Of a DNA stretch of 64,000 bases, positions 9,330-63,892 are shown one piece after another (within the stretch, counting starts at the first letter, position 1; every line of letters starts with the position of its first letter). The position numbers and the translations under genes are program-made. Source of the DNA: Candidatus Kuenenbacteria bacterium HGW-Kuenenbacteria-1 (GTDB taxonomy: Bacteria > Patescibacteriota > Patescibacteriia > UBA2591 > PGYQ01); NCBI GenBank assembly GCA_002839745.1, contig PGYQ01000002.1, forward strand, positions 21,515-85,514, written 5' to 3'. The notes beneath the pieces were generated by a model. That model was not told the origin of the DNA. It saw only the letters and a program-made list of their open reading frames with translations, and searched no databases.

Positions 9330-9331
9330 TT

Positions 9332-12001
9332 ATGTTATACGACGAATTTAACTCATATAAAAACTTTGCCGGCGCTGATGTTTTCAAAAACAAAGCGACT
9401 GAAAAAACGGATATTTTGAAAAATCTCAATCCGGCTTTTCCAGCGCGCGAATATCAAAAAGAAGCGTTGGGGCGATTTTATTATTATTGCGAAGAATATC
9501 ATCAAAAACTCAAACCAATTCACTTGATGTTTAATATGGCGACCGGCTCGGGCAAGACGCTCATAATGGCCGCTAATCTTTTGTATTTTTATCAAAAAGG
9601 TTATCGCAATTTTATTTTCTTTACTCGTCTTGGCAATATTATTCAAAAAACTAAAGCCAATTTTCTTGATCCAAATTCAAAAAAATATCTGTTTGCCGAC
9701 AAAATTATGCTAGGCGGACAGGAAATAAAAATCAAAGAATATAATAATTTTGAAGGAGTAAATGATGACGATATAAACATTATTTTTTCTACAACCGCTC
9801 TTTTGCATTCTCGCTTTAATTTCGCTCGCGAAAATGTTTTAACTTATGAAGATTTTACAGATAAAAAAATTGTTTTGATTGCGGATGAAGCGCACAACCT
9901 ATCTGCGGAAACAAATAATAAAATAAGTAAAACCGAAGAAGAAGACCGTCGAAACTGGGAGAATACAGTAGTGCGGATTTTGAACGCCAACAGCCAAAAA
10001 GAAAATGTCCTTTTGGAATTTACAGCAACGGCTCGTTTAGAACAGGAATATCCGGAAATTTTAGAAAAATATAAAGATAAAGCGATTTATCGTTATGATC
10101 TGAAAGAATATCGCTTGGACGGATTTTCAAAAGATGTACGAACTTTGCAAATCAACGCGCCAACTATTGAACGCGCTCTCTCGGCAGTGATAATTTCTCA
10201 ATATCGCCGAAAAGTAGCAGAAAAGTATAAAATCGCTTTGAAACCAGTGGTAATGTTTAAAGCAAATAGAGTCAGTATTCCAAAAGAAGGAATATCAAAA
10301 GAACACAATCCACAGATTGTCGTTTCAAACATTTTTAAAGAATCTTTTCATAAACTTATTTCTAAACTCGGCGAAAAACACCTAACACAACAAACAGCAA
10401 TTAAAGATGCGACATTACAAAAAGCATTTCAATTTTTCAATGAGCAAAAAATTTCTTTGGCAGATTTAGTGGCAGAAATTAAAAGCGATTTTGCGCCGGA
10501 AAAATGTTTGACAGTTGATGAATATAAAGATTTAGAGCAAAAACAAATTTTACTTAATTCGTTGGAAGATCAAAACAATGAAATCCGCGCTATTTTCGCA
10601 ACAGAAAAATTGAATGAGGGCTGGGATGTTTTAAATCTTTTTGATATTGTCAGGCTCTATAATAGCCGTGACGTCAAAAACAATAAACCGGGTAAAACAA
10701 CTGTGCAAGAGGCGCAACTTATCGGGCGAGGTGCAAGATATTATCCATTCACACTCGGCGACTTTACAGACGCATACAGGCGAAAATTTGATACCGACAC
10801 ACAAAACGAACTTCGGATTTTGGAACAGCTTTATTATCACAGCGTAACGAATCCCCGTTATATTCAAGAATTGGAAAGTGTTCTGGTTCGTGAAGGTATT
10901 ATGCCGTCACGCACAGTGCAAAAAGAGATTAAGATCAAAAGTGATTTTAAAAACAGCGATTTTTGGAATAAAGGTTTTATTTTCTTAAATGCTCGCAAAG
11001 AAAATTTAGGCAAGAATGTTTTCGCACTCTCGGACGCTAAAGCAGAATTTGACCACAACGCTGAAATAAACATCTTTCAACTATCAACGCGAGAAGCGAT
11101 AGAAAAAGATTTATTTGTTGCGGGTGCTGGCGCCGGAGTAAATGCAAAAATAGAAATTCTGGATTATAAAATCGCTGATTTGGGAACACATATTGTCCGC
11201 ACCGCTTTGGCGAAAATACCAGCCGGACGATTTGATAAATTAAAAAAAATATTTGGCAATATAGAATCCATAAAAGATTTTATTTTAAATGAAAAATATC
11301 TTGGAGGAATAAAAATTAAAGTGAGAGGTAAGAGCGAGCAAGTAGAAGATCTTTTGCAGATTGAAAAATTAAGTATTGCCGGATTTGTGATAGATAAAGT
11401 GTTAGAAATCGCCGGCAAAGAAAAAAAGGAATACTACGGAACAAAGGAATTTAAAGCTCATTTGATCCAAAAAATATTTGAAAATGACAAGGTATTGCAA
11501 TTGGATAGCGAAAGTTCACGAGCGCAAAATATGCGAGATTTTGATTTTTCTTCTCGGGATTGGTTTGCTCAAAACGAAATCTGGGGAACAAGCGAGGAAG
11601 AATCATTTTTGCGTTTTATTGATGAGTCAATAACAAAGTTAAAGAAAAAATATCAAGACATTGCATTACTTCGCAATGAACAATTTTTCAAAATTTATAA
11701 TTTTGATAATGGAGAGCCATTTTATCCAGATTTCGTTTTGTTTTTAACTGAAAAGGAAACAAAACAAGAAATTATATATCAAATTTTTGTTGAGCCAAAA
11801 GGAGATCATCTTGTATTATATGACGAATGGAAACAGGAATTTTTACTTAAGATAGAAAAAAATTACACTATTGATTTAAAACTAGAAAATAAAAATTTTC
11901 GCTTGATCGGATTGCCATTTTTTAATGAGGGTCAAGTAAATAGTGCTTTGCGTGAAAAATTTGAAGAAGTTTTTAAAAAACAATTTTTAGATATAAGCTA
12001 A
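9332..12001 (+). CDS. res: Type III restriction enzyme Res subunit (SF2 helicase-nuclease)
   Basis: Helicase motif I (MATGSGKT), motif II (IADEAHNL), 889 aa, start 3 nt after the mod stop. Confidence 0.8.
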   Translation: MLYDEFNSYKNFAGADVFKNKATEKTDILKNLNPAFPAREYQKEALGRFYYYCEEYHQKLKPIHLMFNMATGSGKTLIMAANLLYFYQKGYRNFIFFTRLGNIIQKTKANFLDPNSKKYLFADKIMLGGQEIKIKEYNNFEGVNDDDINIIFSTTALLHSRFNFARENVLTYEDFTDKKIVLIADEAHNLSAETNNKISKTEEEDRRNWENTVVRILNANSQKENVLLEFTATARLEQEYPEILEKYKDKAIYRYDLKEYRLDGFSKDVRTLQINAPTIERALSAVIISQYRRKVAEKYKIALKPVVMFKANRVSIPKEGISKEHNPQIVVSNIFKESFHKLISKLGEKHLTQQTAIKDATLQKAFQFFNEQKISLADLVAEIKSDFAPEKCLTVDEYKDLEQKQILLNSLEDQNNEIRAIFATEKLNEGWDVLNLFDIVRLYNSRDVKNNKPGKTTVQEAQLIGRGARYYPFTLGDFTDAYRRKFDTDTQNELRILEQLYYHSVTNPRYIQELESVLVREGIMPSRTVQKEIKIKSDFKNSDFWNKGFIFLNARKENLGKNVFALSDAKAEFDHNAEINIFQLSTREAIEKDLFVAGAGAGVNAKIEILDYKIADLGTHIVRTALAKIPAGRFDKLKKIFGNIESIKDFILNEKYLGGIKIKVRGKSEQVEDLLQIEKLSIAGFVIDKVLEIAGKEKKEYYGTKEFKAHLIQKIFENDKVLQLDSESSRAQNMRDFDFSSRDWFAQNEIWGTSEEESFLRFIDESITKLKKKYQDIALLRNEQFFKIYNFDNGEPFYPDFVLFLTEKETKQEIIYQIFVEPKGDHLVLYDEWKQEFLLKIEKNYTIDLKLENKNFRLIGLPFFNEGQVNSALREKFEEVFKKQFLDIS

Positions 12002-12125: not shown

Positions 12126-15100
12126 ATGTATCAATTTTACAGTTTAGTTGATGATAAACAAGAAAATTGTTATTACATTGACACAAATTCATCTTTGAAT
12201 AAAAAAGAAATTAAAATTTTGACCAAAATTTTGGCTAATGGTTTTATTGAAAAAAATATTAGTTTAGTTTCAAAATTAAATGATGAAAAAGTAATTGAAA
12301 TTGGACCTAGACTTAATTTTGCTACTGCTTTTTCTAGTAATGCTGTATCAGTTTGTCATAATTGCGGATTAAAAATAATTATACGAATTGAAAAAGCAAA
12401 AAGATATGATTTAAATAAAAATGATGATAGAAATAATTTCATTAAAACAAATCATGATAAAATGACTGAAATTGTTTATGAAAAAAAGTTAGAAAATTTT
12501 AAAACAAATTTAATTCCAAAACCAGTCTATGAAGTAAAAATTTTAGAACAAGGAATTGATGCTTTGAAAAAAATAAATAAAGAAATGGGCTTGGGAATGG
12601 ATGATTGGGACGAACAATTTTATTTCAATCTTTTTATTAATGACATAAAAAGAAATCCTACCAATGTTGAATGTTTTCAATTAGGTCAAGCTAATAGTGA
12701 ACATTCTAGACATTGGTTTTTTAAAGGCAGAATGATAATAGATGGAAAAGAAAAAGAAGAAACTTTGTTAGAAATAGTTCAATCAACTTTAAAAGCTAAT
12801 ATTGCAAATAGTTTAATTGCTTTTACTGATAATTCAAGCGCTATAAAAGGTTATGCTATTGAAACAATTATTCCAAAAACACCTGGAAAAGTTTCGTATT
12901 TTATAAAAACAAAGAAAAAATATAATTTTATTTTTACAGCTGAAACACATAATTTTCCAACAGGAATTGCTCCTTTTTCTGGTGCTGAAACAGGATCAGG
13001 AGGACGAATTAGAGATGTTCAAGCAACAGGAAAAGGATCTTTAGTTGTGGCAGGAACTGCTGGTTATGCAATTGGTAATCTTAATATTCCTAAATATAAT
13101 TTAGTTAATGAAAATAAAAATTTTAAATATCCAGATAATTTAGCAAGTGCTTTAAAAATTCAAATAGATGCTTCAAATGGAGTTTCTGATTATGGAAATA
13201 AATTTGGTGAACCATTAATTCAAGGATTTAATCGTTCTTTTGGTCAAATACTTCCTGATAAAACACGACAAGAATGGATAAAACCAATATTATTTTCTGG
13301 CGGTGTTGGACAAATTGATAATATTCATATTAAAAAATATAAAGTAGAAATTAAAATGTGTATAATTCAAATCGGCGGTCCAGCTTATCGTATTGGAATG
13401 GGTGGTGGAGCAGCTTCAAGTATGATTCAAGGTGAAAATAAAACAGAATTAGATTTTAATGCTGTTCAACGTGGTGATGCTGAAATTGAACAAAAAATAA
13501 ATCGAGTTATTCGCGCTTGTGTAGAAATGGGAAATAATAATCCAATTATTAGTATTCATGATCAAGGAGCTGGAGGACCTTGTAATGTTTTAACAGAATT
13601 AGTAGAACCAATCGGTGGCAAAATAGAAATTAGAAAAATTAATTTAGGTGATAAAACAATGTCAGTTTTAGAAATTTGGGGATGTGAATATCAAGAAAGA
13701 CAAGCTTTATTAATTAAACCAAATAAATTAAAATTATTTTTAAATATTTGTAAAAGAGAACATAGTGATTGTGAAATATTAGGAACAATTACTGGCGATG
13801 GAAAAATTATTGTTTATGATAATGAAAATAAATCAACACCAGTTAATTTAGAACTTTCTAAAATTCTTGGCAAAATGCCTAAAAAAATATTTAAAGACAC
13901 AAGTTTAAAAATGAAATTAACTCCATTAATATTTCCAAATAATTTATCTTTTGAAAAAGCTTTAGAAAATGTTTTACATTTGCCATCAGTTTGTTCAAAA
14001 AGATTTTTAACAACAAAAGTAGATCGCAGTGTAACAGGTTTAATTGCTCGTCAACAATGTGTTGGTCCTTTGCAACTTCCATTATCTGATGTTGCAGTAA
14101 TCGCACAAAGTCATTTTAATAAAACTGGCGCAGCTATTTCAATTGGGGAACAACCAATAAAAATTTTAGTTAACCCAGAAGCAGGCGCGCGGATGTCAGT
14201 TGGCGAAGCATTAACAAATATTGTTTGGGCAAAAATAAGTAAATTAGAAAATATTAAATGTTCTGGAAATTGGATGTGGCCAGCAAAATTACCAGGTGAA
14301 GCTTCAAGAATTTATCAATCAGCTTCAGCAATGCGTGATTTAATGATTAAATTAGGAATTGCAATTGATGGAGGAAAAGATAGTTTATCAATGGCAACAA
14401 AAATGAAAAATGAAATTATTAAATCACCAGAAGAATTAGTTATTTCAGCATATTCTTCAATGCCAGATATTAATAAAGTAATTACGCCAGATATTAAATA
14501 TGCTGGAGAAAGTGAGCTTTGGATTATTGATTTAGGAAAATCAAAATGTCGTTTAGGAGGATCAGCTTTAGCTCAAACTGTTAAACAAATTGGAAATCAA
14601 TCGCCAGATGTTGATGATGCAGAAATATTAAAACAATCTTTTTTAGCAATACAAGAATTAATTGAAAAAGATTTAATTATTTCAGGACACGATCGTTCAG
14701 ACGGCGGTTTAATAACAACATTACTTGAAATGGCTTTTGCTGGAAATTGTGGTTTAAAAATTAAAACAGAAAATAATGCTGATAAATTTGCTTATTATTT
14801 TAATGAAGAATTAGGTTATATAATTGAAGTAAAAAATAATCTAAAAAAAGAATTTTTAAAAATTATAAATAAATATAACTTAAATAATTTAACAGAATCT
14901 ATTGCAAAAACTATTATTGAAAAAGAAATTATTATTAACCATAATAATGAATTAATTTTAAAAAATTCAATGCAAAAATTAAGAGATATTTGGGAAGAAA
15001 CAAGTCATCAAATTAATTTACTTCAAACTGATCCAAAATGCGCTCAAGAAGAAAAAAATAATATTTTTAATCAACAAGTATTAGAATATAAAATTTCTTT

Positions 15101-26646: not shown

Positions 26647-26730
26647 AATTCAAAATTTATAATTCAAAATTTATAATTTCTTAATTAATTTAAAATTTAT
26701 AATTCAAAATTTATAATTTCTTAAGCCATT
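26647..26730. repeat. two direct copies of a roughly 38-bp AT-rich unit (AAAATTTATAATTCAAAATTTATAATTTCTTAA) upstream of lepB
   Basis: Direct repeat read from sequence. Its core AATTTATAATTTCTTAA recurs at about 56520-56550 and about 57060-57100. Confidence 0.7.
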
Positions 26731-32368: not shown

Positions 32369-32734
32369 ATGGTTTTTTATTTTAAAAAATTTTTAAAAAG
32401 TTTTGAACATTCTTTTAGAGGATTAAAAAATGCATTGATTTGGGAACAAAATCTTAAAATTCAATTATGTGTTTCTTTTATTGTTATTTTTTTAATGTTT
32501 TATTTCCCAACTAGAAATTTAGAAAAAGTCGCTTTAATTTTAGTTATAGCCGCTGTTTTAATTTTAGAATTAATTAATACTATTTTTGAAAGACTTTCTG
32601 ATATTTTAAAACCGCGTATTCATGATTATATAAAAGACATCAAAGATATTATGGCTGCAACAGTTTTAATTGCTTCCATCTGTGCCATAATTATTGGATT
32701 ACTTATTTTAGGACCATACTTTATGAAATTATAA
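32369..32734 (+). CDS. dgkA: diacylglycerol/undecaprenol kinase (DgkA family)
   Basis: 121 aa, three TM helices, conserved ybeY-dgkA neighbourhood. Confidence 0.6.
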   Translation: MVFYFKKFLKSFEHSFRGLKNALIWEQNLKIQLCVSFIVIFLMFYFPTRNLEKVALILVIAAVLILELINTIFERLSDILKPRIHDYIKDIKDIMAATVLIASICAIIIGLLILGPYFMKL

Positions 32735-32856
32735 ATTATAAATTATAAATTAAAGATTTTAAATTAAAGATTTTAAATATTGTGTTTCTTTAAAACAAGA
32801 GTATAATAATTACAAAATCTAAAAATTAATTTTTAAAGCTAACAGCTATTAAATTT

Positions 32857-34271: not shown

Positions 34272-35149
34272 ATGCAATACAATTCCGAAATCCATCATCG
34301 TCGATCAATTAGATTAAAAGAATATGATTATTCGCAAAATGGCGTATATTTCATCACAATTTGTACGCAAAATCATGAATGTTTGTTTGGAAAAATTGAA
34401 AATGAAAAAATGATTTTAAATGAATACGGCAAAATTGTAAAAAAAGATTGGTTGGAAATCCCAAATCATTTTCCAAATATAATATTAGACAAATTTATTG
34501 TAATGCCCAACCATATTCACGGAATAATAATTATTGACGCATCCGTAGGGGCGTACCCTTGCGGTCGCCCTGTAATTAGGGCAGGGGCAAGCCCCACGGT
34601 TGGGCTGTTCTAAAATAATGACATCATAAAGTTTACATTATTTGTACATTTTTCAATTGTTTCTTGTATTTTGTTTAAATTATTTTTTCTGAAAATATTA
34701 ATTACTAAATTTCTGATTAAAGAATAATTTGCAGAAGCATTTCCTCACGGTTAGGGAAATTAATTAAGCCCCCTTGATAAAGGGGGTTGGGGGATTTCAT
34801 AAGAAAGAAACCCTCTAAATCCCCCTTATCAGGGGACAAAGAGAGAAGCAAACCTCTTAAAAGCCCCCTTGATAAAGGGGGTTGGGGGATTTCAGAAATT
34901 AAGAAACCCTCTAAATCTCCCTTATCAGGGAGACTTTATGGAAGAAGGATTTTCAAAATTATAAATCATTAGTTGCAAATAGGTGTTTAAATATTTATAA
35001 ATCAAAAAATAAATATATGGGGAAATTATAGCAACGGAATTATTTTGAACATATTATTCGTGATGAAAAATCATTAAATAAAATTCACGAATATATTTTT
35101 AACAATTTTTTGAAATGGGAATTTGACAGAAATAATCCAAAAAATTTAT
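34272..35149 (+). pseudogene. REP-associated tyrosine transposase (RAYT, IS200/Y1 family) split by a MITE insertion. N part is about 34272-34592, C part about 35028-35149.
   Basis: N part has HHRRSIRLKEYDYSQNGVYFITICT and the HuH motif (HIHGII). C part reads QRNYFEHIIRDEKSLNKIHEYIFNN, the catalytic-Tyr motif. The two parts are separated by a repeat element that has a near-identical second copy at 58479-58781. Confidence 0.65.
34593..35027. mobile_element. MITE-like element copy A (one clean terminal inverted repeat (TIR), internal 86-bp tandem duplication, degenerate distal end) inserted in the RAYT gene
   Basis: TIR CCACGGTTGGGCTGTTCTA lies at 34593-34611. The body is near-identical to the reverse complement of 58479-58781. 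Internal GC hairpin modules are CCCCCTTGATAAAGGGGG and CCCCTTATCAGGGG. The hairpin unit is duplicated at about 34768-34853 and 34863-34945. Confidence 0.65.
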
Positions 35150-35154
35150 AATTA

Positions 35155-35290
35155 AATTCCGTAGGGGCGTACCATGAATTAGGTTTTAGGTTTTAGAGGT
35201 TAGGGATTTGTAGGGGCGTACCCTTGCGTACGCCCAAGAAATAAAAAACAAATAAAATTATGTAGGGGGCGTATTACAATACGCCCATAC
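35155..35290. repeat. cluster of GTAG-initiated GC-rich REP-like palindromes
   Basis: CCGTAGGGGCGTACC; GTAGGGGCGTAC-CCTTGC-GTACGCCC (perfect hairpin); GGGCGTATT-ACA-ATACGCCC. Related hairpins occur at 34183-34240, 34536-34552 and 36047-36066. Confidence 0.7.
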
Positions 35291-37798: not shown

Positions 37799-38860
37799 TT
37801 AATTAATAATCTGCTGTTTTTTATCCTCTTCTTTTTTTAATTCAAAAAAATCTTTTATCAAAATAAATAAAGTGGTAGCAATAGGAATGGCTAATAACAT
37901 TCCAATAGGACCATATAATTTCCCGCCAATTAAAACAACAATAATAACCAATACTGGGTTTAATCCCACAATTTTACCCATTATTTTAGGAACCAGGATA
38001 TGATTTTCTAATTGTTGAATAATAAAATACAAAGCAATTACCAATAAAGCTGTAACAGGAGATTGAGTAAAAGCTAAAAATATAGCAGGAATAGCTCCTA
38101 TGATAGGACCGAAATATGGGATACATTCACTAATTCCAGCAATTAAAGCTAATAATAAGGCATATTTAACACCCAAAATTAAAAGCCCAATATAGCTAAA
38201 AAGACCTATTGATAAACATAAAATTAATTGCCCGCGCGACCAAAGACTTATTTTATTTTGCACTTGAGAAAAAAGCTGCAAAGTATAAGATTGAAATTTG
38301 TCAGGCACAATGGATTGAATAATTTTTTTCATTGCTTTTACTTCAAGCAATAAATAAAAAATCATAATTAAAACAAAAATAAAAGTAACTAAACCTCCAA
38401 AAATATCTATAACTCTGAAAAATATATTTTGTCCTATTTGAACTATGTTTTTATTTAAATCCTGAGATAAAAATTCTTTAGAAGTTGAAGTAAAGTTATC
38501 TATATTAGAATATTGTTGAACAATAGCAAACATTTCTGCTACTTTCCCTTTCCATTGAGGAAAATTTTCTACTGCTTGATTAATTTGATCAAATATTACT
38601 GGAACAATTAAAACAATAATAAAAAATATAACACAAAATATTACAAGATAAATAACAGAAATTGATATAATTCGCGGAATTTTTTTTCTTTGAAAATAAT
38701 TAACTAACGGATTAAGAGCTGCTGCCAAAATAATAGAAACAACGACAACAAGTATTACATCGCGAATTAAATACAAAAATCCAAAAATTAAAAAAATTCC
38801 AATTACCTTAATAATTGTCAAAGAGGAAATATTAATTGTAAGCTGATTTTTTTCTTGCAT
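37799..38860 (-). CDS. AI-2E family transporter (PerM/TqsA-like)
   Basis: 353 aa with about 8 TM helices and an AI-2E-like profile. Confidence 0.65.
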   Translation of the reverse strand: MQEKNQLTINISSLTIIKVIGIFLIFGFLYLIRDVILVVVVSIILAAALNPLVNYFQRKKIPRIISISVIYLVIFCVIFFIIVLIVPVIFDQINQAVENFPQWKGKVAEMFAIVQQYSNIDNFTSTSKEFLSQDLNKNIVQIGQNIFFRVIDIFGGLVTFIFVLIMIFYLLLEVKAMKKIIQSIVPDKFQSYTLQLFSQVQNKISLWSRGQLILCLSIGLFSYIGLLILGVKYALLLALIAGISECIPYFGPIIGAIPAIFLAFTQSPVTALLVIALYFIIQQLENHILVPKIMGKIVGLNPVLVIIVVLIGGKLYGPIGMLLAIPIATTLFILIKDFFELKKEEDKKQQIIN

Positions 38861-38875
38861 AAATATAAATAAAAA

Positions 38876-41206
38876 TTATAAATTAGATGAATAAGATAAA
38901 GATTTTATATAATTTTCCATAAATTCCCAATCAGGTTTTTCATTTTTTGATGGGAGTTTTATAATCCTTTCTTTTAATCTTGTTTGACTAGCTTTTATTC
39001 CATAATTATATCGATATTGTTCCATATTTAAAATTGTTGTTAAAAATAAACCAATATATTTATTCAACTCAAATTTTGGTATTAATTTTTCTACATGATC
39101 ACTTGCTGAAAATCTTTTTTCTTGAAATGAACAATATCCTATAACAGCACTATCAATAGTTAAAATGTTCCCTTCTTCTGTAAAAAAATCATAAAAACCT
39201 CTCACTCCATTATTAGTTGCTTGTGTAGTAATAAAAGGATATTCTCCTTTTCCATATTCTTCTAAATCTAAAATGGAAGTTGTTTTACTTCCAGTAATTT
39301 CAAACAAATCTATTAAATTAAAATTTTTCCAATTTTTTATATTTAATTTAATATTTTCATTTTTTGAAATACTAGATTTTAAAATATTTTTATTAATAAA
39401 AATATTATTTGCTATTTCAAAGGCTAAATAATTACGAACATCTTTCTCAAAATCCTCTTTTGAAATATTTGAATAATCCGTCTCCATATAAGCTTCGGCA
39501 CACCATTCGTCGTTTGCTTTTACGACTTTATTTACACTAAGCCCTGCAATATTTTCGTGATTTTGAAAATTTACTATCCATTCTTTTTTTATTTTATTTT
39601 TAAAATTTTCAAATAAATCAATTCTTCCTTTATTTTTTCTTTTTACAAAACCATCGTTTTTATAATATCCAAAATAAGTTTTCTTTTCTGCAGGATGAGG
39701 TCTCTTTGCTGTAAAAACCATAATACAAGAAACAACATTTACTTTTGAATTAAAAAATAATTCATCTGGCATTGAAAAAACTGCTTCCAGAGTATGCTTC
39801 TCTAAAACTTTTTCTTTCCATTCATAAACTTTTCCTGTTTGAGCTAATGCACTTTGCATCGGAACAATTGCAACACATTTTCCTCCTTGTTCTAAACAAT
39901 CCAAATTATTTAAAATAAATTCAAATTCATCTATATCATTTTTTTTATCTGATTTATAAGGAGGATTGAGCAAGCCGACTGTTGGTTTAGAATTTTTAAC
40001 TTGTTTAATAATTTTTTCATCAAAACAACTTCCGTGAAAAATATTTGTTTTTCCATCTTGATGTATAAACATATTTGAACAAGCAAGAGCAAAAATATCT
40101 GCTTGATATTCAACACCAATTAATTGTTTTGTTTTTATTTCTTTTTCTTTTTCTTTATCACCTTTTGCATCTTTAATCATTAAATTCATAGATGACACAA
40201 GAAAACCACCAGTTCCAGTGCAATTATCATAAACAATACTATCTTTATTTACTTCAACAATTTCTGTCATAAATTCTGTGATATGCGGTGGAGTCAAAAC
40301 TATTCCTAAACCTTTATCACTATTTGCATATCGTAAAAATTCTACATAAAGTTGCCCAAGCACATCAAGATATTTATGATTTTTTATAAAATCTTTTATA
40401 TTTTCATTTATGTCTGTAATTATTTCAAGCAAAACATTGTGCTTATTTGAAAGACTTGTATCTGTTTTTATAAAAGAAAATTTTTGATCTAAAATAGCAA
40501 GTTTTTTTTCTCCAATTTTTCCGTTTTCAAATTCATTTCTAACAGTGGTTAATAAAAATTCTGATAATTGTTTTGGGTTAGTATAAGTTTTATATCCATC
40601 TTCAAAAGATTTATTTTCCAGAGCAATTAAAACACAAGAAAGTAATAATGCTCGATCGCTTTCTTTAACTTTATGCAAATGTAAATTATCATTAAGTTTT
40701 TTTGAAAAATCTAAAAGATTATTAAAATCTTGCCGAAACTTTTCAGGACTTTTTATATAACCTTCTAAATAATCTTTCGCTAATAATAATTTATTTGAAA
40801 AAATTTCAACAGAATTTTTTTCTCCTTTCATTTGTAAAAAATGTGAGACTTTTAATTCTTTAATATCAGCACCACTAACCGCAATTGAAATCACATCATA
40901 ATCTTTTGCTAAATAAGATGAATATAACAAAACTCCATCAACAGCATAATCTTTTGCTTCTTTTTTTGTTTCACTTTGATGTTTTAAAATATCAAATTTA
41001 CATTCAACAACAATTAAAAGATCTGAATTATTTTTGTACTGAATAATAAATTCCGGAAAACCTTTTCCGTTTCCACTTTTAGAGGCAGTATTTAATAATT
41101 TTTGAATTTTCAAATTTTTAGAAGATTGTTCTTCCAAAATAATATCATCCGAATATTTTTTAAAATGGTCTCTAACAATATTTTCTGTATCTCTTTCGTT
41201 TTTCAT
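38876..41206 (-). CDS. single-chain Type IIG-like restriction-modification enzyme: N-terminal PD-(D/E)xK nuclease, gamma-class N6-adenine methyltransferase, C-terminal HsdS-like target recognition domain
   Basis: DLLIVVECKFD nuclease-like motif near the N-terminus. NPPY methylase motif (LLNPPYKSD). The C-terminal about 190 aa resembles a Type I S-subunit target recognition domain (TRD). Confidence 0.6.
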   Translation of the reverse strand: MKNERDTENIVRDHFKKYSDDIILEEQSSKNLKIQKLLNTASKSGNGKGFPEFIIQYKNNSDLLIVVECKFDILKHQSETKKEAKDYAVDGVLLYSSYLAKDYDVISIAVSGADIKELKVSHFLQMKGEKNSVEIFSNKLLLAKDYLEGYIKSPEKFRQDFNNLLDFSKKLNDNLHLHKVKESDRALLLSCVLIALENKSFEDGYKTYTNPKQLSEFLLTTVRNEFENGKIGEKKLAILDQKFSFIKTDTSLSNKHNVLLEIITDINENIKDFIKNHKYLDVLGQLYVEFLRYANSDKGLGIVLTPPHITEFMTEIVEVNKDSIVYDNCTGTGGFLVSSMNLMIKDAKGDKEKEKEIKTKQLIGVEYQADIFALACSNMFIHQDGKTNIFHGSCFDEKIIKQVKNSKPTVGLLNPPYKSDKKNDIDEFEFILNNLDCLEQGGKCVAIVPMQSALAQTGKVYEWKEKVLEKHTLEAVFSMPDELFFNSKVNVVSCIMVFTAKRPHPAEKKTYFGYYKNDGFVKRKNKGRIDLFENFKNKIKKEWIVNFQNHENIAGLSVNKVVKANDEWCAEAYMETDYSNISKEDFEKDVRNYLAFEIANNIFINKNILKSSISKNENIKLNIKNWKNFNLIDLFEITGSKTTSILDLEEYGKGEYPFITTQATNNGVRGFYDFFTEEGNILTIDSAVIGYCSFQEKRFSASDHVEKLIPKFELNKYIGLFLTTILNMEQYRYNYGIKASQTRLKERIIKLPSKNEKPDWEFMENYIKSLSYSSNL

Positions 41207-41240
41207 ATGATTGTTTTTTATAGTTAAAAACTTCTATATT

Positions 41241-41431
41241 GATTATTTTACATCAAATTTTTAATAAAGGCAAAAAGAGTTTTGTGTTTTCAAAGGGGCT
41301 TATTATGGCTAAATTTAATTTATTGGTTTGAAAAATTTCTTTTGCCAAATAAAATCCGTATCATCTGTTTCTAAAAGTAAATTTCCTTTTAAGTATTCTT
41401 TAATTTTATTTAATTCTACTTTTGACACTTT
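41241..41431. repeat. about 190-bp duplicate of the 3' end of the M16 peptidase gene (copy of 43919-44110)
   Basis: Near-identical apart from one 4-bp indel (TTAC). Confidence 0.8.
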
Positions 41432-41445
41432 AATGTTTATTGTGA

Positions 41446-43745: not shown

Positions 43746-43860
43746 CAGACGAGTTATTAAAAATCGGTTTAATAATAAAATTTGCTATGTCGTGGCTAAC
43801 ATATATCTCTTCACACAAAGGAATAAGCGCGATTTCTATTTTTATTTTTTGCATATTATT

Positions 43861-43915
43861 TTAATAATTGTCAAAGAGGAAATATTAATTGTAAGCTGAT
43901 TTTTTTCTTGCATAA
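43861..43915. repeat. 55-bp duplicate of the 5' end (first 17 codons plus start) of the AI-2E transporter gene (copy of 38810-38864)
   Basis: Exact 55-bp identity; directly abuts the intact 3' end of the peptidase gene. Confidence 0.85.
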
Positions 43916-43929
43916 TATTTATTATTACA

Positions 43930-45102
43930 TCAAATTTTTAATAAAGGCAAAAAGAGTTTTGTGTTTTCAAAGGGGCTTATTATGGCTAAATTTAATTTAT
44001 TGGTTTGAAAAATTTCTTTTGCCTTACAAATAAAATCCGTATCATCTGTTTCTAAAAGTAAATTTCCTTTTAAGTATTCTTTAATTTTATTTAATTCTAC
44101 TTTTGACACTTTAATATTTTTTAATTTCTTAAATTCACGCAAAATTATTTTTATTGCTTGATTAATTTTATTAATATTTAATCCAGCACTCACAACCAAA
44201 GCTCCTGTTTCATTATAATAATCAATGGAAGAATAAATATAATAAGCCAATCCCCTTTTTTCTCTAATTTCCATAAAAAGCCTTGAACTCATTGTCCCAC
44301 CTAAAATAACGCTTAAAACTTGATAGACTGTCTTTTGTGGATTATTATATGAAAGATAATCTGATTTTAAACTTAAACATAAATGCGCTTGATCAGTTTC
44401 TTTTTTATATAATAAAATCTGCGGTTTTTTTTGTTGATCTTCTACTTTTTTAAATTTTTTTATAGATTTATTTTTAATTTTATTAAATATTTTCTCTACT
44501 TCTATAATTACTTGTTCATGTTTTATATCCCCTGCCACACTAATTACCATATTTGAAGGTTGATATAAATCCTTTATATAATTTATAAAATCTTCTCTTT
44601 TAATTTTTTCTATAATCTTTTTTTCTCCTAAAGGATCAAACCCTAAATTCTGTTCTTTCCACATTAATTGTTGAATCAAAGTGGAAATATAAGACTGAGG
44701 ATTATCTAAATACATATTAATTTCCTCAAGAATTACTCCTTTTTCTTTTTCAATTTCTTCTGATTTAATCAGAGAATTTAAAACTAAATCTGAAAGAAAT
44801 TCAATACCTAATTTGAAATGCTTTTTTGGCACTTTGGTCCAAAAACCCGTGTGATCAATAGAAGTAAAAGCGTTAATTTGTCCACCAACTTTTTCAATTG
44901 TTTCTGAAATTTGTTTTGCATTTGGCCTTTTTTTTGTTCCCTTAAAAAACATATGCTCTAAAAAATGTGAAATGCCATTATTATTTTTATTTTCATATCT
45001 TGATCCAGCGCCAATTAAAATAATAGAAGCGACAGATTTCATTTCTGGCATTTCACTAGTAATAATTCTCAAACCATTTTTTAAAATTGTTTTTTTAAAC
45101 AT
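43930..45102 (-). CDS. M16-family zinc metallopeptidase (insulinase-like)
   Basis: Inverted zinc motif HFLEHMFFKGT (HxxEH). Confidence 0.75.
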   Translation of the reverse strand: MFKKTILKNGLRIITSEMPEMKSVASIILIGAGSRYENKNNNGISHFLEHMFFKGTKKRPNAKQISETIEKVGGQINAFTSIDHTGFWTKVPKKHFKLGIEFLSDLVLNSLIKSEEIEKEKGVILEEINMYLDNPQSYISTLIQQLMWKEQNLGFDPLGEKKIIEKIKREDFINYIKDLYQPSNMVISVAGDIKHEQVIIEVEKIFNKIKNKSIKKFKKVEDQQKKPQILLYKKETDQAHLCLSLKSDYLSYNNPQKTVYQVLSVILGGTMSSRLFMEIREKRGLAYYIYSSIDYYNETGALVVSAGLNINKINQAIKIILREFKKLKNIKVSKVELNKIKEYLKGNLLLETDDTDFICKAKEIFQTNKLNLAIISPFENTKLFLPLLKI

Positions 45103-46155: not shown

Positions 46156-49100
46156 TTATTTTATTTTATATTCTTTTCTATCATAAAATTCTTCTTGTTT
46201 ACCTTCATGCCATTGTTGTATTGGTCTAATATAACCAGTAACTCGGGAATATACTTCACAATTTTTATTACATTGCGGACACTTAAAATGTTCTCCTGCA
46301 ATATAACCATGGTCAGGACAAACACTGAAAGTTGGAGTAATGGTAAAATATGGCAAATGATAATTTTCAGCAATTCGTTTAACTAATTGCTTAGTTGCTT
46401 CAACTGATGGCATTTTTTCTCCAATAAATCCATGAAAAACCGTTCCTCCTGAATATTTACATTGTAATTCATCTTGAAAATCTAAAGCTTCAAAAATATC
46501 ATCTGTATAATTTACTGGCAAATGGCTAGAATTGGTATAATAAAAAGCTTTTTCTCCTGCAGTAATTATTTTTGGATATTTTTTTTTGTCAATTTTAGCC
46601 AAACGATAAGAAGTTCCTTCAGCAGGGACTGCTTCTAAATTGTAAATATTTCCTGTTTCATTTTGAATTTCTTTCAATTTTTCTCGCATAAAATCTAAAA
46701 TTTCTAAAGCAAATTCTCTCCCCTCTTTACTGGCTATGTCTTTATTTTTGCCTAAAAAATTTAAACAAGCCTCATTAATTCCCAAAGGTCCAATGGTAGA
46801 AAAATGATGATCTAAATTTCCTAAATATCTTTTAGTATAAGGAAATAATCCATTATTTAAATTATGAGTAACTACTTTTCTTTTAATTTCTAAAGATTCT
46901 TTTGCTAAATCCATTTGTTTGGCTAATCGATCAAAAAAATCTTTTTTATCTTTTGCTAAATAACCAATGCGAGGCATATTAATAGTCACAACTCCCACCG
47001 AACCAGTTGATTCGCCAGAACCAAAAAGTCCACCTGTCTTTGCTCTTAATTGATTAAGATTCATTTGTAATCTACAACACATTGATCGAACATCGGTTGG
47101 TTTTAATTCACTATTTATAAAATTTTGGAAATATGGTATTCCATATTTGGCTGTCATTTCAAAAAGTAAATTTGTATTTGAAGTATCCCAATTAAAATCT
47201 TTAGTAATATTATATGTAGGAATTGGAAATGTAAAAACCCTCCCTTTATTATCCCCTTCTGTGGCTACTTCTATAAAAGCCCTATTTATCATATCCATTT
47301 CTTTTTGATAATCCTCATAAGTAGTTTCTTGTAATTTGCCACCAATAATTACTGGATCGTTTTTTAAATCTTCCGGCACAGTCCAATCAAAGGTTAAATT
47401 AGTAAATGGCGTATTCCCTGTTATAAAAGTTTTTCCATTTCTTCTTGCAATAAAAGTGCCATTTAAAGTAGTTGGACACCAAACTTTTCCTTTGTATTTT
47501 TTCTTTGAAATTTGAGTTATTGAAGTTATATTATTTCTAATAATATTTATAACGTAAACGCCATTTTCTCTTTGTTTAATGGTTGTTCCATAATTAGACA
47601 AAACGCATAATTCTTGTAAATCATTTTTATTTTTTTCATCTTTTGTAAATATTCTTATCCTACCTTTAAACTCTCGATGACCATCACCTTTAATATAAGT
47701 ATGAATAAAAAGTTGGATTTGATCAGCGGAAAGTGTTTTAATTAAAGAAGGTATTTCTTTTTTATTTATTATTTTTCGAATTTTTTTTGAAGATTCTTGA
47801 TTTAATCTAAATCTTAAAATTATTCCACTATTTAAAAATCCACCATTTTTTTTCATTTCATCCCATTTAAAATTCAATTTTTTTAAACAGGTTCTTATTT
47901 CATTACAATTAGCTATATTTTTTTCTGATTGAAATATATAAACTCGATCTCTATCACCATCTGAAAAACTTCCTTCAGAAACAAACCAAGCAATTATTTT
48001 TAATAAATTTTCGTCTATTTCTTTTTTTGAAACAGTTATAGATGAATTGGGTATTAAAATTGGCGTTTTAAATTTTAAAGCTTTTTCAATTTCTAATAAT
48101 TCAAACTCGCCATTATTAAATATTTTTCTGACAATTTTGTGACCAGGTGTTATTAATTGATCTTGTGTTCTATTTTTTAAATTAAATAAATAACCATTAT
48201 AATCATAAGAACAAACTCTTTCTGGTTTTAAATATTCAATTATTTTTTTTTCTAAATTAAAAGTTGCTATCTTATCTTCTTTTTTAATCTCTAAATATTT
48301 TTTCCATCCATTATCTGTTAATGCTTCTGTGTCTTCACTAACACATTGAGTCCCCCATCTAGAAGGTGCGGCAATATTAAACATAAATTTTTGAATATTT
48401 TGTTTTACTTCTTTATAAGTTAAATGATCCGCTCGCACAAATGGAGCTAAATAAGTATCAAAAGAACTAAAGGCTTGAGCCCCAGCCCATTCATTTTGTA
48501 AAATTCCCCAAAAATTTACCATTTGTCCCAAAACTGTTTCTAAATGTTTGGGTGGCGCGCATTCAATTCGATTTTCAACACCTCCCAATCCTTGCAAAAG
48601 TAATTGTCGTAAACTCCAACCAGCACAATAAGCATTTAAACCCATTGATAAATCATGAAGATGTATATCTCCCTCTTTATGAGCTTGAGCAATTTTTGCT
48701 GGATAAACATTTTCTAAAAGATAATTAGCAATAACGGACCCAGAAATATGAAGCATCAATCCTCCAAACGAATAACCAATATTGGCATTTTCTTTTACTC
48801 TCCAATCTTCTTGTTTTAAATAACCATCCATAATTTTTTCAATATCCATCATTACTCCGCCCATTTCACGCACTTTTTCTTGCTGTTTTCTATATAAAAT
48901 ATAAGCCTTTGCCACTTCAACCAAACCAGCTTTAATTAAAACCTTTTCAACAATGTCTTGGATTTCTTCAACAGTGGGAATATTTTTTGAATCAAATTGA
49001 TATTCAAGAATGGTTAATACCTTATCAGATAATTTTTTTGACTTTTTTCCATCTTTTCCTTCAATAGCAACAATGGCCTTATAAATGGCTTGAGTAATTT

Positions 49101-49176
49101 TTTCTTGATCAAATTCAACCATTCTTCCATTCCGCTTCCGAATTTTTTGTATTTTAAATTTTTTTATTTGTTTCAT
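46156..49176 (-). CDS. nrdD: anaerobic ribonucleoside-triphosphate reductase (class III, NrdD) interrupted by an intein
   Basis: N-terminal ATP-cone. C-terminal Zn ribbon (CPDHG...CPQCNKNC) and glycyl-radical motif (SRVTGYIRP). Extein junctions are RWGTQ|C and N|TPFTN. Confidence 0.8.
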   Translation of the reverse strand: MKQIKKFKIQKIRKRNGRMVEFDQEKITQAIYKAIVAIEGKDGKKSKKLSDKVLTILEYQFDSKNIPTVEEIQDIVEKVLIKAGLVEVAKAYILYRKQQEKVREMGGVMMDIEKIMDGYLKQEDWRVKENANIGYSFGGLMLHISGSVIANYLLENVYPAKIAQAHKEGDIHLHDLSMGLNAYCAGWSLRQLLLQGLGGVENRIECAPPKHLETVLGQMVNFWGILQNEWAGAQAFSSFDTYLAPFVRADHLTYKEVKQNIQKFMFNIAAPSRWGTQCVSEDTEALTDNGWKKYLEIKKEDKIATFNLEKKIIEYLKPERVCSYDYNGYLFNLKNRTQDQLITPGHKIVRKIFNNGEFELLEIEKALKFKTPILIPNSSITVSKKEIDENLLKIIAWFVSEGSFSDGDRDRVYIFQSEKNIANCNEIRTCLKKLNFKWDEMKKNGGFLNSGIILRFRLNQESSKKIRKIINKKEIPSLIKTLSADQIQLFIHTYIKGDGHREFKGRIRIFTKDEKNKNDLQELCVLSNYGTTIKQRENGVYVINIIRNNITSITQISKKKYKGKVWCPTTLNGTFIARRNGKTFITGNTPFTNLTFDWTVPEDLKNDPVIIGGKLQETTYEDYQKEMDMINRAFIEVATEGDNKGRVFTFPIPTYNITKDFNWDTSNTNLLFEMTAKYGIPYFQNFINSELKPTDVRSMCCRLQMNLNQLRAKTGGLFGSGESTGSVGVVTINMPRIGYLAKDKKDFFDRLAKQMDLAKESLEIKRKVVTHNLNNGLFPYTKRYLGNLDHHFSTIGPLGINEACLNFLGKNKDIASKEGREFALEILDFMREKLKEIQNETGNIYNLEAVPAEGTSYRLAKIDKKKYPKIITAGEKAFYYTNSSHLPVNYTDDIFEALDFQDELQCKYSGGTVFHGFIGEKMPSVEATKQLVKRIAENYHLPYFTITPTFSVCPDHGYIAGEHFKCPQCNKNCEVYSRVTGYIRPIQQWHEGKQEEFYDRKEYKIK
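47413..48345 (-). mobile_element. intein (311 aa) with a LAGLIDADG-type homing endonuclease domain inside nrdD
   Basis: Starts with Cys (CVSEDTEALTDNG) and ends ...ITGN, followed by extein Thr. Internal KIIAWFVSEGSFSDGD is a LAGLIDADG-like motif. Confidence 0.65.
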
Positions 49177-49556: not shown

Positions 49557-51373
<1,817 letters not shown>

Positions 51374-57029: not shown

Positions 57030-57081
57030 AAAAATAACTTTTAAACACTAAAACCTTTAATTTAAATTTATAATTTATAAT

Positions 57082-58308
57082 TTATAATTTCTTAATTATT
57101 TTTACAAACTGCCTTTTGCCCTTTTGCAATAATACGCCATTTTCAGTAATCTCAATTATTTTATTTATATCTTTTATTACGGTGTTGTCCACTTTAATCC
57201 CATTTTGTTTAATTAATCTTTTTGCCTCATTTTTACTGCCTGCCATTTTTACCTTAACTAACAAATCTATTATTTTCCAATTCGTTCCGTCGGCTGACGG
57301 ACGTAATTCGTAATTCGTAATTTCATCAGGTATTTCTTTTTGTTGGATTACTTTTATAAAATGTTTTTCTGCCTTTTTTGCTTCATTTTCATTGTGATAA
57401 ATTTTTGTAATTTCAAAAGCCAAACGCATTTTTAAATCGCGCGGATTAATTTTATCAATATCAATTTCTTGCTTGATTTCGGCTATTTTATTTAATGATA
57501 TATCAGTACAAAGTGTAAAATATTTTATAATTAAATTATCAGTCAAAGACATAATTTTGCCATACATCTCTTCGCTTTTTTCCATAAGAGCAATATAATT
57601 ATTAAGACTTTTACTCATTTTATCTCCACCAGATAGTCCTTCTAATAATGGACAAGTAATAATATCCTGCAACTCTTGATTGTATCTTTTTTGCAACTGC
57701 CTACCCATCAACAGGTTAAATTTTTGATCGGTTCCGCCAATTTCTACATCTGCTTTAAGAATAACAGAATCATAACTCTGCAACACAGGATACATAAATT
57801 CCTGCAAACTTAAATCAATATCATTTTTTATTCTTTCTTTAAAATCAGCCCTTTGCGCTACCTGCGCATAGGTGACTTTTGACATTAGCGCTACTAAATC
57901 ATCAAGACTTAATTTAGACAGCCATTTTGAATTATATTTTACCTCTACTTTAGACATATCCAATAACAAACCGGCTTGTTTAACATAACTTTTCATATTA
58001 ACAACTATTTCTTTATTAGCTAAGGCTTTTCTGGTTATGGAACGACCTGTTGGATCTCCAATGCGAGCGGTAAAATCGCCAATTAAAAAAATTACTTGAT
58101 GACCCAAATTTTGAAATTCTCTTAATTTCCGCAAAATTACAGCATGACCTAAATGCAAAACCGAACCTGTTGGATCAATGCCAAACTTAATTCTTAATTT
58201 TTTACCAGACATTAACTTTTTTTTCAAACTATCCTTTATTAAAACTTCCTCCACGCCTTTGGTTAAAACTTCGTCAATTTTTTTTTCATCAATTATAATT
58301 TTTGACAT
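57082..58308 (-). CDS. tyrS: tyrosyl-tRNA synthetase with C-terminal S4 domain
   Basis: HLGH and KMSKS motifs, 408 aa, S4-like C-terminus. Confidence 0.85.
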   Translation of the reverse strand: MSKIIIDEKKIDEVLTKGVEEVLIKDSLKKKLMSGKKLRIKFGIDPTGSVLHLGHAVILRKLREFQNLGHQVIFLIGDFTARIGDPTGRSITRKALANKEIVVNMKSYVKQAGLLLDMSKVEVKYNSKWLSKLSLDDLVALMSKVTYAQVAQRADFKERIKNDIDLSLQEFMYPVLQSYDSVILKADVEIGGTDQKFNLLMGRQLQKRYNQELQDIITCPLLEGLSGGDKMSKSLNNYIALMEKSEEMYGKIMSLTDNLIIKYFTLCTDISLNKIAEIKQEIDIDKINPRDLKMRLAFEITKIYHNENEAKKAEKHFIKVIQQKEIPDEITNYELRPSADGTNWKIIDLLVKVKMAGSKNEAKRLIKQNGIKVDNTVIKDINKIIEITENGVLLQKGKRQFVKIIKKL

Positions 58309-58478
58309 AATTTTATATTTAAAGATTATATTTATATAATAGCAAAATTTTTTATTTTTCCCAAAACAACTAACAATGTGCGTTCGAAAAAATTCGAACA
58401 GATTTCGCCCAAAATTTGTAAGGCGGGCGGAATTTTTACCTCATAGCAAACTTGCTTTGCTTCGGGGCACCTTAAACC

Positions 58479-58781
58479 CCACGGTTGGGCTGTTCTACAA
58501 AAAATAAAAATAATTTTGAAAATCCTTCTTTCATAAAGTCTCCCTGATAAGGGAGATTTAGAGGGTTTCTTAATTTCTGAAATCCCCCAACCCCCTTTAT
58601 CAAGGGGGCTAATTAATTTCCCTAACCATAAGGAAATGCTCCTGCAAATTATTCTTTAATTAGAAATTTGGTAATTAATATTTTTCTAAAAAATAATTTA
58701 AACAAAATACAAGAAACAATTGAAAAATATACAAATAATGTAAAATTTATGATGCCATTATTTTAGAACATCCCAACCGTA
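58479..58781. mobile_element. MITE-like element copy B (303 bp) with 18-19 bp terminal inverted repeats and a 9-bp target-site duplication
   Basis: Left TIR CCACGGTTGGGCTGTTCTA at 58479-58497. Right TIR TAGAACATCCCAACCGTA at 58764-58781. Flanking direct repeat CCTTAAACC at 58470-58478 and 58782-58790. No ORF inside. Confidence 0.75.
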
Positions 58782-58997
58782 CCTTAAACCCAAAAAGATA
58801 AAAAAAGCTAGACACACTTTTATGAACGGTCCCGTAAATTGGTCATGCCGAAAATCTTTTAGCCCCATCATTGCCGAACCTTCTATAACAAGATCAAGCA
58901 TTTTCATTTCCAATTTCGAAAATTTTTCGTTAGGTGCAAGAGTGTATTCAAAAAGAGCAATTTTACCACCGGGCTTCAAAATTCTAAAAAATTCCAA
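58758..58997 (-). pseudogene. C-terminal fragment of a SAM-dependent methyltransferase, truncated, with MITE B overlapping its 3' end
   Basis: ILKPGGKIALFEY motif typical of class I methyltransferases downstream of motif I. No N-terminal SAM-binding GxGxG region. Adjacent to tRNA-Ser. Confidence 0.45.
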
Positions 58998-59060
58998 TTT
59001 GCGATTAAAATCGGCTGGCGAACCCTTGCAAAGGCCGAGCCAAACTCTTCTTTTACCAAC

Positions 59061-59150
59061 TGGCGGAGAGATAGGGATTCGAACCCTAGAGACCCGTTAA
59101 GGCCTAACAGTTTTCAAGACTGTCCCATTCAACCACTCTGGCATCTCTCC
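59061..59150 (-). tRNA. tRNA-Ser (anticodon TGA), long variable arm, CCA encoded
   Basis: GGAGAGA acceptor, anticodon loop CTTGAAA, long extra arm, T-arm CTAGG-GTTCGAAT-CCCTA. Confidence 0.75.
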
Positions 59151-61692: not shown

Positions 61693-61745
61693 AAAAAATA
61701 GTTTTTATCCGACAGCTGACGGATGTTAGCTTTTAGGAAAATCAT

Positions 61746-61786
61746 AAAACAAAAGTCGCGATTAATTATATCGCGACTTTTGTTTT
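61746..61786 (-). terminator. 17-bp-stem hairpin terminator downstream of the KH-protein gene
   Basis: AAAACAAAAGTCGCGAT-taattat-ATCGCGACTTTTGTTTT. Confidence 0.6.
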
Positions 61787-61846
61787 ATGTAAACCATGTT
61801 AAATGCAAATATTTAACAAAATAAACAATAGAATAATAAATGATTT

Positions 61847-63825: not shown

Positions 63826-63862
63826 AAATAAAAAAATACGAAATTACATTTTCGTATTTTTT
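63826..63862 (+). terminator. rho-independent terminator after tsf
   Basis: AAATACGAAA-ttacatt-TTCGTATTT followed by a T run. Confidence 0.55.
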
Positions 63863-63892
63863 TATTTAATTAAAAGTGATATAATTAAATAT

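Follow-up and report, generated by a model that had tools for sequence, protein, structure and literature searches.

Miniature inverted-repeat transposable elements (MITEs) have been described in several bacteria, with Correia/CREE in Neisseria, RUP in Streptococcus pneumoniae and Nezha in cyanobacteria as examples. Bacteria of the candidate phyla radiation (CPR) have very small, streamlined genomes whose mobile-element content is poorly described, and among the papers listed by our library search there was none on MITEs in CPR, Patescibacteria or Kuenenbacteria. Here we analyse a segment of Candidatus Kuenenbacteria bacterium HGW-Kuenenbacteria-1 (CPR/Patescibacteria) that lies in a 64-kb stretch of contig PGYQ01000002.1 with 27.8% G+C (hereafter the window; all window coordinates refer to this stretch). 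With a probability of roughly 0.85, this segment is a MITE, that is, a non-autonomous DNA transposon of ~300 bp, and we find it in the window twice (copy 1 and copy 2). Like the bacterial MITEs above, it is ~300 bp long and non-coding, ends in terminal inverted repeats, is flanked by target-site duplications, is present more than once in its genome, can adopt a long hairpin fold and has inserted in or beside genes. It differs from them in its streamlined CPR/Patescibacteria host, in duplications of 11-12 bp, which are unusually long, and in an interior that includes hairpin units from a distinct REP-like repeat family; moreover, no parent insertion sequence is known, and we could not demonstrate that its sequence resembles that of any other element.

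Two further systems resemble parts of this element. The first is that of repetitive extragenic palindromes (REPs), their inverted doublets (REPINs) and the REP-associated tyrosine transposases (RAYTs). As in these systems, the internal module of the element is an inverted doublet of ~32-nt hairpin units, and a related Kuenenbacteria genome has such units clustered between genes and arrayed in tandem close to a RAYT-like gene. Unlike REPs, however, the units lack a 5' GTAG and do not lie near the RAYT-like genes of other genomes, being confined in the window to the interior of the MITE copies, and the element as a whole has the inverted repeats and target duplications that REPINs do not have. 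The second system is MIC231, a group of non-autonomous IS231 derivatives in which IS231-type inverted repeats surround unrelated passenger DNA that is moved in trans (PMC6199540). MIC231 carries coding sequences and spans 0.7-3 kb, whereas the element described here is non-coding and ~300 nt long.

Copy 1 is a non-coding segment of 300-301 nt (58480/81-58780). Read from 58469 to 58791, the order is ACCTTAAACCC, a single C, ACGGTTGGGCTGTTCTA, an interior of ~265 nt, TAGAACATCCCAACCGT and again ACCTTAAACCC, and the segment resolves into the following features:

58469..58479: upstream target-site duplication of copy 1, ACCTTAAACCC (perfect 11-nt repeat, D8)
58480: unmatched C between duplication and inverted repeat (counterpart in copy 2 at 34595)
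58481..58497, plus strand: terminal inverted repeat of copy 1 on the REPIN side, ACGGTTGGGCTGTTCTA (I1 and 17-mer scan)
58538..58610: REPIN-like inverted doublet of two REP-like units (I5)
58538-58569, plus strand: unit A of the doublet, GTC-TCCCTGATAAGGGA-GATTTAGAGGGTTTC
58579-58610, minus strand: unit B of the doublet, AG-CCCCCTTGATAAAGGGGG-TTGGGGGATTTC
58611..58763: AT-rich non-coding body (no Rfam match; 93% identity with copy 2)
58764..58780, minus strand: terminal inverted repeat of copy 1 on the body side, reverse complement ACGGTTGGGATGTTCTA (I1 and 17-mer scan)
58781..58791: downstream target-site duplication of copy 1, ACCTTAAACCC (D8)

The two arms are strictly complementary over 17 nt (16 of 17 positions), and in the repeat finder they extend to 23 nt at 87%. 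The direct repeat is a perfect 11-mer that occurs in the window at these two sites only, and the composition-based chance of meeting it at the single position that abuts the opposite end of the element is ~1e-7. When the inverted-repeat 17-mer is searched in the window with up to 3 mismatches, four matches are found against 0.05 expected; of the exact 17-mer matches, two are the ends of copy 1 and a third (34596) belongs to copy 2. The element encodes no open reading frame (ORF) above 43 aa, in line with the lack of coding capacity stated in an earlier note made from the sequence alone; the longest ORFs within it measure 43 and 32 aa, the latter being the longest in the AT-rich body. An Rfam scan of the element returned no family, and its translated frames matched no predicted protein. 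As a single strand, the element folds much better than shuffled sequences (z = -6.1).

The second copy lies at 34595-34962 in the opposite orientation, with 92.5% identity to copy 1 over 240 nt and 99% over 101 nt, and interrupts a gene:

34272..35151, plus strand: RAYT-like (IS200-type Y1 transposase) gene broken by copy 2 (HUH motif, Pfam Y1_Tnp)
34583..34594: upstream target-site duplication of copy 2, AGGGGCAAGCCC, containing GGGGCAAGCCC (GGGN5CCC); its twin is deleted in the window and lies at 10744-10755 of assembly contig L115
34595..34962, minus strand: copy 2, inverted relative to copy 1 and truncated (complete form in L115)

Copy 2 has the hairpin doublet twice in tandem, the additional unit measuring 96 nt. 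The doublet is much better conserved between the copies than the rest, with 2 mismatches in 126 positions of the doublet region against 11 in 153 of the AT-rich body. In the window, one end of copy 2 is missing through a 106-nt deletion, as a comparison with two further assemblies of this organism shows, among them ENA ERZ27239245 (L115). The junction (34962/34963 in the window against 10693-10798 in L115) is bounded by TAT/TTAT microhomology, and the lost bases comprised the inverted repeat at the far end of the element together with one of its target duplications and 15 host-gene codons. In L115, whose flanks are 100% identical to the window, both inverted repeats and the perfect 12-nt repeat AGGGGCAAGCCC are present, and the complete copy 2 spans 420 nt (10324-10743), with its far inverted repeat interrupted by a 23-nt partial duplication. 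A third assembly (JGI contig, protein P0122) encodes the same filled junction, and the orientation of copy 2 is identical in all three assemblies. A contig of GCA_017973855.1 (L116), likewise an assembly of this organism, stops inside copy 2 and shows a third sequence variant after the first ~100 nt, which is the behaviour expected of a multi-copy repeat at assembly.

The earlier note had proposed a 303-bp MITE with 18-19-bp terminal inverted repeats and a 9-bp target-site duplication. The second copy, the duplication of its own that this copy carries and the host reading frame restored on excision (see below) support the MITE, while its length is corrected to 300-301 nt and its strictly complementary arms to 17 nt; the flanking repeat is indeed perfect, at 11 nt rather than 9 nt (12 nt at copy 2). 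Nor did we find either of the outcomes that the note had named as speaking against a MITE, namely the absence of any other copy and a flanking repeat that occurs there by chance: a further copy is present at 34595-34962, and its L115 form has its own perfect 12-nt duplication.

We further note that at both insertions (58480 and 34595) a lone C separates the upstream duplication from the inverted repeat, despite the opposite orientations of the bodies. Imprecise donor cleavage beside a ...CCC flank and inversion of the body between the inverted repeats are possible explanations.

The gene broken by copy 2 provides a direct view of the insertion. Its N-terminal part (34272-34594) contains the HUH motif 'MPNHIHGII' and matches Pfam Y1_Tnp, with NCBIfam REP_Tyr_transpos under its cut-off, and the N-terminal ORF shows 100% identity to a protein of Candidatus Kuenenbacteria bacterium HGW-Kuenenbacteria-1; in its C-terminal part (34963-35151), a TAG replaces the Trp of 'WQRNY'. 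Copy 2 has thereby inactivated the only RAYT-like gene of the window. When the element and one repeat are removed in silico from L115 (10324-10755), the open frame is restored ('...VIRAGASPAPTNTVTIGAIIGAYKSLVANRCLNIYKSKNKYMGKL*QRNYFEH...', junction '...VIRAGASPAPTNTVTIGAIIGAYKSLVAN...'), and seven intact homologues align with the resulting frame in colinear fashion, showing no gap where the junction lies (consensus '...RAGASPAPT...TVGxIIGAYKSLVANxCLxIYKSKN..MGKLWQRNYYEH'). The orthologous RAYT-like gene is uninterrupted in a related Kuenenbacteria genome (GCA_043822485.1, L123; ~85% nucleotide identity), where it stands in the syntenic order mraZ-rsmH-ftsI-ybeY-dgkA-ftsA-RAYT. The check for empty sites suggested in the earlier note thus yielded an intact orthologue and a frame restored in silico, but no empty allele from the same species. 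We also considered whether the inverted repeat might be native RAYT-like coding sequence, as it reads 'P-T-V-G' in frame and aligns with the 'APTVG' of the homologues. This was rejected as a coincidence, because the true 'GASPAPT' codons of L115 sit downstream of the element, past the second duplication.

The RAYT-like gene itself shows a separate peculiarity. GTAG-type REP-like palindromes (GTAGGGGCGTACCCTTGCGTACGCCC) occur at 34545-34570, 35161-35173, 35210-35235 and 35262-35286, just downstream of the gene and, in one case, in frame inside it after the HUH motif, where the palindrome encodes a variable loop, 'SVGAYPCGRP'. In the L123 orthologue, the same loop (~10276-10303) is encoded by a different perfect palindrome, GTAGGGGTAATTCATGAATTACCCCTAC, and several homologues have 'VGATLAV' at that loop, which a similar palindrome could encode (by back-translation only). 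Judged from these sequences, a REP seems to be embedded in the proteins of this family as their variable loop.

Two insertions with common inverted repeats, each with its own 11-12-bp duplication, a non-coding interior and a reading frame restored on excision together argue for a cut-and-paste MITE. In the proposed mechanism, a DDE transposase encoded elsewhere would bind the 17-18-bp terminal inverted repeats, (C)ACGGTTGGGCTGTTCTA, excise the element and join its 3' ends to the target with cuts staggered by about one helical turn, and gap repair would leave the 11-12-bp target-site duplications. That the mobilising enzyme is a DDE transposase acting in trans is our inference from the established staggered-cut-and-repair mechanism. 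The element carries no gene; its cargo is a pair of REP-like hairpin units arranged as an inverted doublet, which has undergone tandem duplication in copy 2.

Several observations weigh against this interpretation. No DDE transposase or autonomous element was found in the 64-kb window, either by Pfam searches of unannotated ORFs or in the gene tables. The exact 17-mer occurs at 54 loci in 185,579 species genomes, 60 in JGI metagenome contigs and 2 in IMG/VR, every one of them a chance or coding match (the latter of the type 'GWDVL') that lacks the element body, and when the element was compared by blastn with plasmid and phage collections, no match was returned. The copies directly seen number two, both within the window, to which the third sequence variant in L116 adds as a sign of multiple copies. 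Finally, look-ups of neighbouring genes did not recover a same-species empty allele of either site; for copy 1, they yielded only short Logan contigs, of which L117 breaks off 15 nt beyond the element and L118 ahead of tyrS, while others extend the sequence by 1.3 kb to the left, and no record was met for TyrRS or EF-Ts.

Within the transposon interpretation, the mobilising enzyme may tentatively be placed in the IS4 family as an IS231-like transposase, an assignment to which we give somewhat less than even odds. It is the best fit given the length of the duplications, the 5'-CA at one end and the position of copy 2 exactly in a GGGN5CCC site. The duplications of 11 and 12 bp fall within the range of about one helical turn (10-13 bp) of the IS4 family, whose members duplicate 10-12 bp (IS231), 10 bp (ISH8), 8-10 bp (IS4Sa) and 10-13 bp (IS4) and have 5'-CA or 5'-NA ends (PMC2266710 Table 1). 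IS231A in particular makes an 11-bp duplication at GGGNNNNNCCC (PMC2577343 Table 1), and the duplication of copy 2 contains exactly this motif, as GGGGCAAGCCC; GGGN5CCC occurs at 4 loci in the 64 kb.

The fit is incomplete. The duplication of copy 1 matches the CCC half of GGGN5CCC only, and the comparison rests on n = 2 insertions. The 5'-CA is present at one end only, and the reading CACGG... requires counting the unmatched C. This extra C abuts different ends of the element in copy 1 and copy 2, which leaves more than one way to place the termini and a duplication of anywhere from 10 to 13 bp. The IS231 consensus ends, CAT-------AA--TAA (PMC2266710 Table 1), agree with the element (CACGGTTGGGCTGTTCTA) no further than CA. 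Furthermore, IS231 is almost confined to the Bacillus cereus group, and no IS4-family transposase was found here.

Of the alternatives to a cut-and-paste MITE, the one that fares best, though it is improbable, is that the whole element is REPIN-like or palindrome-associated and was moved as single-stranded DNA by an HUH/Y1 (RAYT-like) enzyme with the hairpins as recognition sites. The element does hold an inverted doublet of REP-like hairpins, a RAYT-like gene is present in the window, and in L123 the units cluster within 1-2 kb of a RAYT-like gene, directly after a 13-codon RAYT N-terminal remnant. Transposition by Y1/HUH enzymes (IS200/IS605, RAYT), however, produces no target duplication and does not need terminal inverted repeats, and both insertions here have perfect 11-12-bp duplications abutting inverted repeats. 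The units also lack the 5' GTAG and are missing from RAYT-like loci of other genomes (L124 and L129-L135), and the only RAYT-like gene seen is broken by the element itself.

Less probable still is an inverton, in which the inverted repeats would bracket a DNA switch flipped by a site-specific recombinase. Inverted repeats of 17-23 nt around ~265 nt, a weak promoter-like site inside (58668-58697) and bodies that, with the unmatched flanking C as reference, point in opposite directions in copy 1 and copy 2 would all suit such a switch. It leaves unexplained the second locus, with its different duplication and restored frame; copy 2 lies in one orientation across three assemblies, and no recombinase gene was found in the neighbourhood. 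To the same low degree of likelihood, each copy could be an independent internal deletion of a full-length insertion sequence whose short form never transposed. This predicts the inverted repeats and target duplications equally well, but the copies have common internal junctions, with the doublet at the same place over ~300 nt, which two separate deletions would not produce. A chance origin of the inverted and direct repeats at 58469-58791 in AT-rich intergenic DNA is excluded: short AT-rich repeats are abundant, and the window holds 196 pairs of exact, directly repeated 11-mers spaced 200-500 nt apart, but the repeats of the element contain GC and are position-specific (p ~1e-7), the 17-mer is expected 0.05 times, and a second copy exists.

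We next consider the cargo of the MITE. The GC-rich hairpins, TCTCCCTGATAAGGGAGA at 58540-58557 and CCCCCTTTATCAAGGGGG at 58591-58608, form the inverted doublet of two related ~32-nt units, and the general pattern of the hairpin unit is CCCCC-TTGATAAA-GGGGG-N2-5-GGGGGATTT. GC-rich hairpins in an AT-rich body are thus present, as the earlier note had stated, but they are not peculiar to the element, since free units occur in L123. There, ~10 free units make up three intergenic clusters (2554-2645, 11616-11793 and 12181-12425), partly as 46-nt tandem arrays, with neither the inverted repeats nor the AT-rich body. The clusters and arrays lie to either side of a DUF559 gene, and one cluster directly follows the 13-codon N-terminal remnant 'MEYNPKTHHRQSI*' of a second RAYT-like gene (11558-11599).

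Near-identical units are also found in three unrelated viral contigs of 48-53% G+C (L120 1556-1600, L121 5868-5989 and L122 4367-4398), in the forms AAATCCCCC-N2-4-CCCCCTTTATCAAGGGGG or AAACCCCCTAAATCCCCCTTATCAGGGGGAC, and a HMMER search of representatives recovered nothing but unit-derived repeat ORFs, 'NPLNPPYQGDF', in predicted proteins P0123-P0128. The units are absent from 712 kb of random loci, no Rfam family covers the viral loci that carry them, and a terminator scan did not call the hairpins.

We also asked whether the RAYT-like family has its cognate REPs in units A and B, and rejected this on their absence from the RAYT-like loci of other genomes, which leaves L123 as the basis of the link to RAYTs. 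The units are preceded by AAGTC or AAAGC in place of the GTAG of classical REPs, and the GTAG palindromes at the RAYT-like gene differ from them in sequence. In keeping with the missing GTAG, we describe the hairpin modules as an independent REP/REPIN-like repeat family that is carried as cargo, and claim no dependence on a RAYT. A likeness of the hairpin loop to the tRNA-Ile anticodon arm, met in the literature search, was set aside as a coincidence. It is doubtful, though conceivable, that the element represents the first described MITE family of CPR/Patescibacteria, a DDE-type (IS4-like) element that spreads a REPIN-like doublet.

The DNA that separates tRNA-Ser from tyrS is decayed, and copy 1 lies in it, ~170 nt upstream of where tyrS starts; the order on the minus strand is ksgA, tRNA-Ser, an ORF fragment, the MITE and tyrS. 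Two neighbours bear on the insertion:

58758..59040, minus strand: decayed ORF fragment 'EFFRILKPGGK...' running into copy 1 (ORF 58758-58997)
59061..59150, minus strand: tRNA-Ser(TGA), neighbour of the insertion

The tRNA-Ser had been correctly named as a neighbour. The element had also been said to overlap the 3' end of a truncated methyltransferase gene. The ORF (58758-58997, minus strand) does enter the element, by 23 nt, but its identity is weak: it has no Pfam or NCBIfam match, and its best support is a match with E = 0.16 to the 'FRILKPGG' stretch of an S-adenosylmethionine (SAM)-dependent methyltransferase in the PDB. On this basis the methyltransferase label is unproven, and the fragment, at best decayed, is possibly a remnant of such an enzyme, which is plausible from its sequence.

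Other features of the window and its relatives are recorded here in their own right. The 16S rRNA gene (49558-51373) spans 1816 nt against a model of 1533 positions and therefore contains insertions of ~280 nt in all, a frequent feature of the rRNA genes of CPR bacteria. The anaerobic ribonucleotide reductase NrdD (46156-49176, minus strand; 1006 aa) has a weak LAGLIDADG_3 match at residues 486-548 and, on that match, may contain an intein.

A contiguous 268-nt sequence at 43855-44122 is duplicated with ~96% identity at 38802-38862 and 41236-41441. This second locus is split by 2373 nt with an N6_Mtase/Methylase_S restriction-modification gene (38876-41206), which therefore looks inserted into, or bracketed by, the duplicated segment; the ENA contig ends at this repeat. 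A type III restriction-modification pair (7395-12001; TypeIII_RM_meth/N6_N4_Mtase and a ResIII helicase) stands between purine-biosynthesis genes.

To the left of the window start, by ~360-1030 nt (L126/L119 294-962), lies a 222-aa C-terminal fragment of LepA with EFG_C and LepA_C only; murC starts 170 nt from it, and lepA is truncated or split. AT-only short repeats of the type AATTTATAATTT occupy intergenic positions at 57049-57102, 26653-26724 and 32721-32775, and one of these repeats contains the start of a Logan contig. Three strong hairpins (2903-2939, 61743-61789 and 63826-63867) resemble terminators.

With this element, a familiar class gains a new member, from the genome of a tiny groundwater bacterium, and the understanding of how MITEs work is unchanged by it. 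As a documented MITE, it would indicate that cut-and-paste transposition has operated in a streamlined CPR genome, where its effects include two insertions, the knock-out of a gene, breaks in assemblies and strain-level rearrangements (the deletion of 106 nt and hairpin duplications that vary). It also offers a practical marker with which strains can be typed and the ends of contigs explained in metagenome-assembled genomes of Kuenenbacteria. If the IS231-like choice of target is true, it would extend that behaviour far beyond the Bacillus cereus group. The recurrence of the hairpin units in unrelated genomes makes them worth examining in their own right: the ~32-nt unit, a TGATAA-loop hairpin with a GGGGGATTT tail, is conserved between a CPR genome of 28% GC and viral contigs of 48-53% GC. 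On the doubtful reading above, in which a DDE-type element spreads the doublet, this would imply that the unit is a module recognised by a protein or RNA and shared widely, perhaps as a bidirectional terminator/insulator or as a substrate of Y1 transposases, rather than an oddity of one lineage.

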